Shown one piece after another: positions 25,328-28,234 of a DNA stretch of 64,000 nt; position 1 is the first letter of the stretch, and each line of letters starts with the position of its first letter. This DNA comes from a virus. A program made the position numbers and the translations under genes. The stretch covers positions 115,403 to 179,402 of the IMG/VR virus record IMGVR_UViG_3300027906_000002; one strand, written 5' to 3'. A model generated the notes under the pieces. The model worked only from the letters and a program-made list of their open reading frames with translations. It made no database searches and had not been told where the DNA came from.

Positions 25328-26728
25328 ATGTCTAACATTAAACAACTCCAAGAAAAGTGGGCCCCTGTTCTTAATCACGATGCTCTTCCAGAGATCGAGG
25401 ATACTTATAAGAAAGGCGTTGTAGCCCAACTTCTTGAAAACCAGGAAAAAGCACAGATCGAAGAAGGAAACATTCTTAACGAAACTCTTCAGACTGTAGG
25501 TACAGGTGGATATGGTGCTGGTAGTACCGCCACAGGTCCAGTTGCTGGTTTCGACCCCGTTCTAATCAGTCTTATCCGTCGTTCAATGCCTAAGCTAATT
25601 GCTTATGACATTGCTGGTGTTCAACCAATGACAGGTCCAACAGGACTTATCTTTGCGATGAGAACCAACTACGGTACAGAAAGAGATGCTACAGACTCTG
25701 ATTACAGAGAGGCATTCTTCAATGAGCCTAACGCTGGATTCTCTGGTGGCCCAGGTAATCGTCTTGCTGACTATGATCCTAGTGCTTCTGGTTCTGCAAT
25801 CAACGATGCTGAAGGTACTAACCCTGCATTGCTTAACGACTCTTCACCAGGAACTTACGAGTTAACAGGTGATGCCACTGGAATGGCAACAACCACTGCT
25901 GAAGCACTGGATGACAGCTCTGCTGCAACAGCCTTCAGAGAAATGGGTTTCTCAATCGAGAAAGTAACAGTTACTGCGAAGTCACGTGCTTTAAAGGCTG
26001 AGTACTCAATCGAACTAGCTCAAGACTTGAAAGCAATTCATGGTCTAGATGCCGAGCAAGAGTTATCAAACATTCTCTCAACAGAGATACTTGCTGAAAT
26101 CAACAGAGAAGTTGTTCGTACTATCTACGTTAATGCTGTAGAAGGTGCTCAGAACAATACTGCTGATGCTGGTATATTTGACCTAGACGTTGACTCCAAT
26201 GGTAGATGGTCAGTTGAGAAGTTCAAAGGACTACTCTTCCAAATCGAAAGAGATGCTAACGCTATCGGACAGCAAACTCGTCGTGGAAAGGGCAACATCT
26301 TGGTCTGTTCTGCAGACGTTGCTTCTGCTCTAGGAATGGCTGGTGTACTTGATTACACTCCTGCTCTTAATGGCAACAACGCTCTTACTGGTGTTGATGA
26401 TACTGCAAGCACACTTGTTGGTACTCTTAACGGTAAGATCAAGGTTTATGTTGATCCTTATTCTGCTAACGTTGCTGACAAGCACTTCTACGTTGCTGGA
26501 TACAAAGGTACTTCACCTTATGACGCTGGATTATTCTATTGCCCATATGTACCTCTACAGCAGGTCAGAGCAATTAATCCTAACACCTTCCAACCAAAAA
26601 TTGGCTTTAAGACTCGTTACGGAATGGTTTCTAACCCATTTGCTCAAGGTCTTACACAAGGTTCTGGTGCTCTTACAGCTAACACCAACAAGTACTACAG
26701 ACGTGTACAAGTTGCAAACATAATGTAA
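25328..26728 (+). CDS. gp23: Major capsid protein gp23
   Basis: LQEKWAPVL; GVQPMTGPTGLIFAMR; ELAQDLKAIHGLDAE; QPKIGFKTRYG. Confidence 0.98.
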   Translation: MSNIKQLQEKWAPVLNHDALPEIEDTYKKGVVAQLLENQEKAQIEEGNILNETLQTVGTGGYGAGSTATGPVAGFDPVLISLIRRSMPKLIAYDIAGVQPMTGPTGLIFAMRTNYGTERDATDSDYREAFFNEPNAGFSGGPGNRLADYDPSASGSAINDAEGTNPALLNDSSPGTYELTGDATGMATTTAEALDDSSAATAFREMGFSIEKVTVTAKSRALKAEYSIELAQDLKAIHGLDAEQELSNILSTEILAEINREVVRTIYVNAVEGAQNNTADAGIFDLDVDSNGRWSVEKFKGLLFQIERDANAIGQQTRRGKGNILVCSADVASALGMAGVLDYTPALNGNNALTGVDDTASTLVGTLNGKIKVYVDPYSANVADKHFYVAGYKGTSPYDAGLFYCPYVPLQQVRAINPNTFQPKIGFKTRYGMVSNPFAQGLTQGSGALTANTNKYYRRVQVANIM

Positions 26729-26750: not shown

Positions 26751-26779
26751 AAAGAGACCCCAAAGGGGTCTCTTTTTTT
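26751..26779 (+). terminator. Rho-independent terminator after gp23
   Basis: AAAGAGACCCC-AAA-GGGGTCTCTTT followed by a T run. Confidence 0.88.
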
Positions 26780-26783
26780 ATGC

Positions 26784-26789
26784 TAAATA
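26784..26789 (+). promoter_or_regulatory. Late promoter TAAATA for the aaRS-like gene and tRNA
   Basis: Directly downstream of the gp23 terminator, about 20 nt before ATG 26810. Confidence 0.65.
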
Positions 26790-26809
26790 GATTAGTTTGA
26801 CTAAAAATA

Positions 26810-27601
26810 ATGACAAGCTTGATTGATCCAAAGAAATATACTGAGACAGTGGGGCGTTTACGCTCCTTTTTTTTAGCCAAAGGATTCTATGAAGTACATA
26901 CACAAAACCGTTTAAGTATACTTGCTGCTTGTGAAGATCCAGAAACAGTAGCAACATATAATTACGGTGGTAATATATGGCCACTACCACAAACAGGTCA
27001 GATGTGGCTTGAACATGAATTACTTTCTAACCCTTCAGCAGAAGGGTTTTTCTGTGTCTCAACGTCTTATAGGGCAGAACCAAACCCAGTACCAGGAAGA
27101 CATGAAACGATCTTCCCTATGTTTGAGTTTGAAATGAAGGGGGATGTAGAAGATCTTAAGAGCATGGAGATTGATCTATGCAAATATCTAGGACTTCCTG
27201 AGTTAGATATAGAAACTTATGAAGACTGGTCTAATAAATTCAACACGAAAGAACTAGACCATGACCATGAAAAGGCAATTGGTTCTGGTATGATTACAGA
27301 GTTCCCTGAATGGACATCACCTTTCTGGAACATGTCTAGGAACGATGATGGAACCAGTAGAAAGATTGATGTTATCTTAGGTGGCATGGAAACCATTGGT
27401 AGTGCAGAACGCAGTACTGATAAAGAACAGATGCGTAATACCTTCTACACCATATCTGATGGTGGGTATGCTCAACTTATTATCGATAAGTTTGGTAGAA
27501 GTAGAGTAGAGAAAGAACTAGAAGACTTCCTCTCATTTGATTTCTTCCCTCGTTCTGGAGGTGGGATAGGAGTCCAACGTCTAATGTCAGCCCTTTCATA
27601 G
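26810..27601 (+). CDS. Class IIb aminoacyl-tRNA synthetase (Asp/Asn/Lys family) catalytic-domain-only paralogue
   Basis: Motif 1 LRSFFLAKGFYEVHT; motif 2 SYRAE...GRH..IFPMFEFE; ETIGSAER; motif 3 PRSGGGIGVQRL; 263 aa, with no N-terminal OB anticodon-binding domain. Confidence 0.88.
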   Translation: MTSLIDPKKYTETVGRLRSFFLAKGFYEVHTQNRLSILAACEDPETVATYNYGGNIWPLPQTGQMWLEHELLSNPSAEGFFCVSTSYRAEPNPVPGRHETIFPMFEFEMKGDVEDLKSMEIDLCKYLGLPELDIETYEDWSNKFNTKELDHDHEKAIGSGMITEFPEWTSPFWNMSRNDDGTSRKIDVILGGMETIGSAERSTDKEQMRNTFYTISDGGYAQLIIDKFGRSRVEKELEDFLSFDFFPRSGGGIGVQRLMSALS

Positions 27602-27609
27602 GGCTACAT

Positions 27610-27695
27610 TGTGAGGTGACGAAATTGGTAAACGTGTCAGTCTGTTTAACTGATGTTCCTGGCGGGACTTGAAGGTTCGACTCCTTCCCTCACAG
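27610..27695 (+). tRNA. tRNA with GTT (Asn) anticodon and long variable arm, 86 nt, no encoded CCA
   Basis: Acceptor TGTGAGG/CCTCACA + G73; D arm ACG/CGT with GG; anticodon stem TCAGT/ACTGA, loop CTGTTTA; variable arm GTTCC-TGGC-GGGAC; T arm GAAGG-TTCGACT-CCTTC. Confidence 0.9.
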
Positions 27696-27727
27696 TTTAT
27701 GCATATATAATATACTTGATATTTATT

Positions 27728-28234
27728 ATGAATCATAGGGTAGTTGATAATTTTTTAACCCATCATGAGTTGGCACATCTACAAGAAGTATATCTTGAAG
27801 ATGACTTTCCTTGGTTTTGGGGACCAACAACTGTACCTTATGAGGGATCCAATTGTGAAAATGAATTAGATAACTATCAATTCTACCATCCATTTTATGT
27901 TCCAGGAATGTATAATAATACACCGTACTGGAACATACTCGATCCTATAATAAAAAAACTTGGTGTTAGATCTCTTCTAAGAATAAAGGGAAACTTAACT
28001 ACAAGAACTACAGAAATAGTTGAACATGGATATCATGTAGATTTTAAATGGGATGATTCTTTAACAGCAATTTACTATGTTAATAGTAATGATGGGTATA
28101 CCATATTTGAAGATGGTACTAAAATAGAAAGTGTAGAGAACCGTATTGTCATCTTCCCAGTCCATCATAAACATAGTGGTACTAGTTGTACTAACGAAAA
28201 AAGAAGAGTTATTATTAATTTCAATTACTTCTAA
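27728..28234 (+). CDS. 2OG-Fe(II) oxygenase (prolyl 4-hydroxylase-like)
   Basis: VVDNFL start; HVD...TAIYYVNSNDGYT; NRIVIF; H.GT; R.IINFNYF; true start placed after the tRNA. Confidence 0.85.
   Translation: MNHRVVDNFLTHHELAHLQEVYLEDDFPWFWGPTTVPYEGSNCENELDNYQFYHPFYVPGMYNNTPYWNILDPIIKKLGVRSLLRIKGNLTTRTTEIVEHGYHVDFKWDDSLTAIYYVNSNDGYTIFEDGTKIESVENRIVIFPVHHKHSGTSCTNEKRRVIINFNYF

Follow-up and report, generated by a model that had tools for sequence, protein, structure and literature searches.

The catalytic core of asparaginyl-tRNA synthetase (AsnRS), a class IIb enzyme, is part of proteins of ~430-550 aa that also contain an OB-fold anticodon-binding domain and a hinge, and cores of the same type occur as stand-alone proteins with tasks of their own. 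One of these is AS-AR (P. abyssi, structures 3P8T and 3REU), a truncated core related to AsnRS and aspartyl-tRNA synthetase (AspRS) which, together with AsnA, sets the precedent for a tRNA-independent role, the synthesis of asparagine from aspartate, ammonia and ATP. AsnA and AS-AR activate the beta-carboxyl group of aspartate within the same fold; we know of no dedicated tRNA for AS-AR and of no link between it and pyrimidine genes. EpmA (GenX, PoxA) is another class IIb core without an anticodon domain, and lysylates EF-P, an acceptor that has the shape of a tRNA and is not one. Here we describe a core of this kind that is encoded immediately upstream of an atypical tRNA gene in a stretch of viral DNA of 64,000 nucleotides (positions 115,403 to 179,402 of IMG/VR record IMGVR_UViG_3300027906_000002; hereafter the window). 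It covers the right-hand 64 kb of a complete T4-like cyanophage genome of 179,402 bp, whose psbA protein shares 93% identity with its counterpart in Prochlorococcus MIT 1012. Enzyme and tRNA gene move as one cassette, and together they probably do more than ordinary tRNA charging.

On the side of the tRNA, the nearest described system is the indirect route to Asn-tRNA, which reads the anticodon, G73 and the U1:A72 pair. To our knowledge, no pathway hands Asn-tRNA to an AsnRS-like core. Other amino acids are also made on tRNA, among them Sec and, from Sep, Cys, and tRNA-Sec offers a partial likeness, being a long-armed special tRNA that may carry an amino acid made on it. A further comparison is with the tRNAs by which phage T5 escapes host nucleases: AriB of the PARIS defence cuts tRNA-Asn(GUU), the sequence U36-A37-A38-U39 near the cut is common to other AriB targets, and the defence is blocked when T5 tRNA variants (Lys, Thr, Asn) are overexpressed (PMC12409363). 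The cyanophage tRNA, also with anticodon GUU, is altered beside this sequence; the T5 tRNAs differ from it in having a normal body and no linked synthetase-like gene. Homologs of the cyanophage enzyme in P-SSM2 and P-SSM7 carry the bare annotation "tRNA ligase" (PMC3037559), as does the homolog in P-SSM5, and our literature searches found no functional study, just a "tRNA ligase" row in PMC3037559.

The enzyme-tRNA cassette

The enzyme is a protein of 263 aa (window positions 26810-27601, plus strand, ending in a TAG codon). Pfam recognizes a single domain in it, PF00152, the class II D/K/N core (E 2.9e-13, residues 14-262), and over its full length it matches PHROG 29758, a family of unknown function (E 4.1e-159, residues 1-262 on positions 1-265 of a profile of 267). 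The protein begins at motif 1 and has neither the OB-fold domain nor the hinge of AsnRS, so that its structural model aligns with AsnRS from residue ~115 (bacterial, archaeal) or ~230 (human) onward. This AF2 (AlphaFold2) model, built on 62 diverse relatives, has a predicted local distance difference test (pLDDT) score of 96.8, and its top structural matches are AsnRS (Z 26.4, root-mean-square deviation 2.1 A over 240 residues), archaeal AspRS (25.4), AS-AR (24.0; 23.4-24.0 over the AS-AR/AsnA structures) and GenX (23.5). When the family profile was compared to the PDB, AsnRS was found at 6e-15, archaeal AspRS at 3.5e-14, AS-AR (3P8T), more distant in sequence, at 1e-6, and EpmA at 1e-4. It is on these profile and structure searches that we base the kinship of the enzyme to AsnRS, AspRS and AS-AR. 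Catalytic domains of AsnRS (human 8H53/8TC9, P. horikoshii 1X54, Brugia 2XTI) share its fold at 22-24% identity.

Curated NCBIfam models all score 14-28 bits on the enzyme, far under cut-offs of 264-468, indicating that it is no ortholog of any named enzyme. The two asnS models yield 19.2 bits against 342.6 (TIGR00457) and 20.6 against 414 (NF003037). Membership in AS-AR or AsnA was rejected, with 25.2 bits against 389 for NF005055, no match to TIGR00669, and a 3P8T profile match weaker than those to AsnRS and AspRS. Membership in EpmA was likewise rejected (TIGR00462, 15.2 bits against 287; NF006828, 17.3 against 264), and the pocket is of the Asx type (QTGQMWLE), whereas that of EpmA is of the Lys type; moreover, the partner of the phage enzyme is an RNA and not EF-P.

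Alignments place class II motifs 1-3, the catalytic Arg/Glu/Asp set and an Asn-type pocket at E42, Q61/Q64/E68, R88, E90, R97-H98, E106/E108, D187, E193, R200 and R257, residues whose roles we take to be those known from published AsnRS and AspRS structures. E42 is aligned to the Glu responsible for binding the alpha-amino group; QTGQMWLE resembles the QxxQLxLE of AsnRS and is without the AspRS lysine; E106-x-E108 stands where AspRS has D-x-E; R200 is the Arg of GSAER, in place of the GGSQR of AsnRS; and motif 3 reads GGGIG..R257. Motif 2 reads YRAEPNPVPGRHETIFPMFEFE, as had been noted in the original prediction, made from the letters of the window. The enzyme also differs from AsnRS in having no motif-1 proline and a proline-rich motif-2 loop (PNPVPG). 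Judged by this residue mapping, the active site is complete and Asn-type, and the original description of a class IIb paralog with motifs 1-3, reduced to its catalytic core, agrees with what we found.

The tRNA (27610-27695, plus strand; 86 nt, anticodon GUU) begins 8 nt past the stop codon of the enzyme gene and is the sole tRNA of the complete genome. Rfam family RF00005 matches it with 52.5 bits (gathering score 29), and ARAGORN reports a tRNA-Asn(GTT) at 27609-27696. The anticodon loop is C32 U33 G34 U35 U36 U37 A38, the D stem has 3 bp, the variable arm has 17 nt with a 5-bp stem, and CCA is not encoded. Among 53 distinct sequences of this tRNA, 99.9% of helix cells pair, which supports all five helices including the stem of the variable arm; 19 of the 24 pairs change on both sides, a value reached by none of 500 shuffles and approached by no slid register. 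Acceptor-stem pairs 2-7 all covary while U1:A72 is fixed, and G73, U8 G9 and G34 U35 U36 U37 are invariant as well. Position 33 is U, but C in one subclade, and the variable region ranges from ~9 to 27 nt.

The body of this tRNA is of the leucine type: the covariance model built from these sequences (R1) gives phage tRNA-Leu 51-64 bits, and host tRNA-Leu has nearly the same D arm, but in all copies the discriminator is G73 and not the A73 of bacterial tRNA-Leu. With host tRNA-Asn (72 nt, A37, 5-nt variable loop, as identified with RF00005 and ARAGORN) it has U1:A72, G73 and CUGUU in common, but not the shape, given its 17-nt arm, U37 and 3-bp D stem; host tRNA-Asp carries G1:C72. The tRNA is therefore atypical, as originally proposed, with GUU on a leucine-type body, U37 and a long variable arm. 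U37, together with C33 in some lineages, is expected to impair decoding.

The linkage of enzyme and tRNA holds in either direction, on ~160 marine viral contigs. The tRNA lies 3' of the enzyme gene in P-SSM7, P-SSM2 and P-SSM5, in all 80 IMG/VR loci whose downstream DNA is long enough, and beside a 60%-identical relative; ARAGORN finds it in 57 of 60 loci, and the remaining three have the tRNA too or end at a contig edge. For the reverse direction, viral contigs were searched for the D-arm and anticodon pattern of the tRNA. All 76 true GUU-U37 tRNAs with upstream room are preceded by the enzyme, 74 of them at 10-42 nt and two at 172 nt, and the 31 enzyme-less pattern matches are not tRNAs. Neither gene was lost alone in ~160 loci, which span 60-100% protein identity. 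The adjacency expected for a dedicated pair thus holds across Kyanoviridae and marine viromes.

The genomic context of the pair is another in P-SSM2 and P-SSM5 than in P-SSM7 and this window, and gp23, which precedes it here, is directly upstream in just 9 of 62 related loci, indicating that the cassette is mobile. Cyanophage tRNA genes are known to occupy mobile, non-syntenic positions (PMC3037559). Two single loci deserve mention. In one (L079:2436-2525), an insert of ~90 nt with a long inverted repeat separates the enzyme stop codon from the tRNA, a gap that elsewhere measures 8-15 nt. In another, the predicted protein P0282 joins a GIY-YIG/NUMOD3 homing-endonuclease module to the core; such a fusion would fit the mobility of the cassette, or it could be a run-through of gene calling.

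A second lineage combines such an enzyme with such a tRNA. P0127, a phage enzyme of 54% identity, is followed 420 nt downstream by a related tRNA (R1, 65 bits) that has U1:A72 and G73, a very long arm (variable regions reach ~37 nt in this lineage) and the loop CGGUCAC, a tRNA-Asp loop with G33. In a maximum-likelihood (ML) tree, the P0127 lineage falls outside the clade (support 97/93) to which the cyanophage enzymes belong. That the two-way linkage is tight, and that it recurs in two separate enzyme lineages, suggests a working relationship between enzyme and tRNA.

Pyrimidine-linked relatives of the enzyme

The enzyme family comprises 664 clusters at 50% identity, 174 of them with E <= 1e-30, and most of its members are stand-alone proteins of 260-300 aa; marine metagenomes hold at least 8000 enzyme clusters at 90% identity. 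Some members, in giant viruses, are fusions of dihydroorotate dehydrogenase (DHODH) and core, of ~590 aa and with 55% identity to the cyanophage enzyme, in which DHODH is represented by a class 1A dihydroorotate oxidase (298 bits). The fusion contigs also carry RING, TBP-like and thymidine-kinase genes. In a giant-virus bin, a stand-alone core (P0125) is encoded 68 nt upstream of a single 765-aa open reading frame (ORF) that fuses PyrE, orotidine monophosphate (OMP) decarboxylase and DHODH (locus L191, G027:C1:46915-49993). Pyrimidine-linked forms and cyanophage enzymes share the 97/93 clade of the ML tree, which is a tree of family members. Their catalytic motifs, including the motif-2 loop, are identical, and the few fixed differences between the two groups are conservative; the same chemistry is therefore expected in both. 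Together, the pyrimidine fusions and the identity of the active sites speak against a plain translation synthetase. The phage genome itself encodes PyrE, an orotate phosphoribosyltransferase (125 bits, cut-off 107), outside the window (G000:C1:39222-39713).

A dedicated tRNA beside every member of the family was considered and rejected: none is found in jumbo phages LR756501 and LR756508, in 15 divergent viral loci or in eight whole viral records, and the high R1 scores in these viruses belong to ordinary tRNA-Leu or tRNA-Ser. In jumbo phage LR756501.1 (735 kb; L103:6158-11504) the core is followed by a 520-aa RimK-like ATP-grasp ligase, a 669-aa protein with a weak PRT match and an RNA-repair HAD protein. 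We dismissed this neighborhood as a clue to the pathway, as no clear pathway emerges from it; perhaps the core belongs to another pathway there. Two bacterial members, P0164 (L089:3001-3870) and P0218 (L090:3001-3849), have lost the arginines of motifs 2 and 3 and look like inactive pseudo-enzymes; their neighbors are ftsA/ftsZ and alr, or lpxB and rpmB/rpmG.

Possible roles of the pair in AsnRS-less hosts

Three complete Prochlorococcus genomes and Synechococcus RCC307 contain no asnS above cut-off and no asnA. Their best asnS matches, at 106-118 bits, are ORFs of ~510 and 600 aa, which are taken to be LysRS and AspRS. gatB is present in six of six host genomes and, with AsnRS absent, this indicates that the hosts make Asn-tRNA by the indirect route. 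Prochlorococcus MIT 1012, likewise without AsnRS, has two AsnB-type amidotransferase genes ~3 kb apart (G001:C1:736107-741999), and MIT 9302 has none.

Our preferred explanation, which we advance tentatively and as a possibility rather than a probability, is that the enzyme is a pyrimidine-linked ligase built on an AsnRS core, and that it is fed by a carrier tRNA that the indirect pathway of the host loads with Asn. The family would consist of viral AsnRS-derived cores that use ATP to activate an Asn- or Asp-type substrate, and its giant-virus members would most likely supply dihydroorotate, or the immediate precursor of it, within the late pyrimidine pathway. In giant viruses of algae, the enzyme would use free Asn. 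AsnRS-less picocyanobacteria, by this account, make Asn for translation solely on tRNA, through a non-discriminating AspRS and then GatCAB, and the cyanophage version would bring its own tRNA for that reason. The phage tRNA retains exactly the marks that the host should read (G34 U35 U36, G73, U1:A72), so that the host could load it with Asn, which the phage enzyme would then remove from the 3' end. As for the chemistry, we infer that Asn may be adenylated or taken from the tRNA ester, that its amine may capture CO2, and that the side-chain amide may close the ring to give dihydroorotate; alternatively, the enzyme could drive the ring closure of carbamoyl-aspartate with ATP. The cassette would then be a mobile late-gene unit with two cooperating parts. 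Since the host-read marks are kept, the enzyme has no anticodon reader and positions 37 and 33 are altered, a host-loaded carrier of Asn fits best. The original prediction had named a non-ribosomal use of the tRNA as an alternative, and this comes close to our preferred explanation. A more specific version is distinctly unlikely in our estimate, namely a tRNA-dependent shortcut in which a non-decoding tRNA is loaded by AspRS and GatCAB and the core makes dihydroorotate from Asn, ATP and CO2, thus bypassing the feedback-controlled steps of carbamoyl-phosphate, aspartate transcarbamoylase (ATCase) and dihydroorotase (DHOase).

Several observations weigh against the host-loaded carrier. The conversion of Asn to a pyrimidine precursor is a proposal of ours. 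Neither DHODH nor OMP decarboxylase is found in this phage genome, and with pyrE ~100 kb from the cassette we rejected a local pyrimidine link. The odd tRNA is absent from enzyme-bearing viruses outside the cyanophage and P0127 lineages, and related tRNAs exist where the enzyme does not: other phages have leucine-type tRNAs with the loop NNGUCU(C/A) (GUC, U37; position 33 is U, G or A), mostly with U1:A72 and G73, and with arms of 20 to ~90 nt. These GUC-U37 tRNAs occur in 20 enzyme-less viral records, five of which are at least 90% complete (examples, all on the minus strand, are L229:2909-3003, L231:384-477, L254:9069-9167, L263:7373-7524 and L210:1437-1531). Enzyme without odd tRNA and odd tRNA without enzyme suggest that each part can function alone. 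Three of the four host genomes contain AsnB-type genes, which may give these cells free Asn. With a pI of 4.7 and a net charge of -17, the enzyme is strongly acidic; relative to tRNA-less family members, the cyanophage clade has lost three basic residues and has no clade-specific gain for RNA binding. Lastly, two genes 8 nt apart may stay linked through descent alone.

This last point leads to a reading without direct interplay, which we consider fairly unlikely: a tRNA-independent metabolic ligase would be linked by descent to a helper or nuclease-resistant tRNA that is loaded by host AspRS and GatCAB and serves translation. The ligase could be an ammonia-dependent asparagine synthetase similar to AS-AR, or an ATP-driven former of dihydroorotate. 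Truncated AsnRS paralogs reportedly make free Asn (Roy et al. 2003 PNAS), and this precedent, the match to AS-AR structures at Z 24, the tRNA-less enzymes of giant viruses, jumbo phages and bacteria, the enzyme-less tRNAs of this type, the full set of host identity marks for the indirect pathway on the tRNA, and the mobile, non-syntenic spots of cyanophage tRNA genes (PMC3037559) all agree with such independence. It is hard to reconcile, however, with ~160 loci in which neither gene is ever lost singly, and with the phylogenetically separate P0127 lineage, which also adjoins a related odd tRNA; furthermore, free Asn would be useless for translation in an AsnRS-less host, and U37 and a non-U33 would be unexpected in a decoding tRNA. 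A further reading, also unlikely, is that of a private charging pair. Here the core would aminoacylate the adjacent tRNA, probably with Asn, through the acceptor end (G73, U1:A72) and not the anticodon, giving an AsnRS-less host direct Asn-tRNA for Asn-rich phage proteins, on a tRNA that may evade host tRNA nucleases. The intact class II site with AsnRS signatures (QxxQ..LE, ExE, the GSAER Arg), the best structural matches to AsnRS, the invariant G73 and U1:A72, the two-way linkage with a shared late promoter, and the fact that the tRNA is the only one of the genome and AsnRS is missing from the host all point in this direction, and U37 would be predicted to break the AriB-site motif U36-A37-A38-U39. 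The PARIS findings thus keep alive both the private pair and the reading without interplay.

The motif-2 loop touches the acceptor end in class II enzymes, yet the nearest relatives, with identical motifs including this loop, are tRNA-less and fused to pyrimidine enzymes, and they sit in viruses of eukaryotes, hosts that already have AsnRS. To this are added U37, and C33 or G33 in some lineages, which are poor for decoding; an acidic protein with K/R residues lost and no RNA-binding part gained; related odd tRNAs that manage without the enzyme; and free Asn that may be scarce in AsnB-less hosts such as MIT 9302. Of the orthogonal charging system first envisaged for this locus, the atypical linked pair stands, and the translational role is weakened by the tRNA-less pyrimidine-linked relatives with identical motifs, and further by the related odd tRNAs in enzyme-less phages. 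The suggestion that the enzyme reads the variable arm, as SerRS does, is not supported, as the arm varies in sequence and in length (~9 to ~37 nt) and the acidic enzyme has no extra domain, its basic residues having been lost rather than gained. A third rival, which appears highly improbable, is that the enzyme modifies the amino acid on the tRNA, e.g. converts Asp-tRNA(GUU) to Asn-tRNA via a beta-aspartyl-adenylate as a one-protein substitute for GatCAB, or that it transfers the activated amino acid elsewhere with the tRNA as scaffold. The beta-carboxyl chemistry of AsnA and AS-AR in the same fold, the U1:A72 mark of transamidation substrates and the tight linkage would suit it, but GatB is already present in the host, and this reading would not account for the pyrimidine fusions. 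The host-loaded carrier differs from the known indirect pathway in the leucine-type body and U37 of its tRNA, and resembles it in the host tRNA-Asn marks and in the host background, GatB-positive and AsnRS-negative.

Surroundings of the cassette and wider significance

In the window, the ORF for gp23, the major capsid protein (25328-26728, plus strand), lies directly upstream of an intrinsic terminator (26751-26775, plus strand; an 11-bp stem with 6 G-C pairs, then a T run) that closes the gp23 transcript and forms the upstream edge of the cassette here. It is followed by a T4-type late-promoter-like box, CTAAATA (26783-26789, plus strand), ~20 nt 5' of the ATG, which probably acts as a promoter, in line with the late promoter originally placed after the gp23 terminator. 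Of 83 related loci, 81 have a TAAATA box in the 60 nt that precede the enzyme ORF, with the same spacing to the ATG whatever the upstream context. In nearly all of the related loci listed there is also a conserved (C)AGTTTG box between TAAATA and the start codon (26790-26809 in the window), possibly a translation or processing signal.

Downstream of the tRNA, as first described, lies a gene for a 2OG-Fe(II) oxygenase (27728-28234, with 27728 as the real start; PF13640). It matches phrog_274 (E 3e-50), a cyanophage oxygenase family that PHROGs seems to have mislabeled "DNA endonuclease V". The idea that this oxygenase could act on the tRNA or its amino acid is not supported, since it is the next gene in only two of 66 loci and hence is a chance neighbor outside the cassette.

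The pair of genes is very abundant in ocean metagenomes and belongs to viruses that infect the most abundant photosynthetic cells on the planet, while the database label of the enzyme is only "tRNA ligase". If the pyrimidine reading is true, an undescribed enzyme step would be common to cyanophages and giant viruses, and a charged tRNA would have gained a metabolic use that is new; if the tRNA shortcut is true as well, a nucleotide precursor would be reached by a route not seen before, and an aminoacyl-tRNA would serve outside translation in a novel way. Were the private pair true instead, the cassette would represent a minimal orthogonal synthetase-tRNA system of natural origin, in which a class IIb core picks its tRNA without an anticodon domain. 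Either way, the cassette lengthens the list of synthetase paralogs with other jobs, and is relevant to the ways in which viruses deal with hosts whose asparagine is made on tRNA alone.

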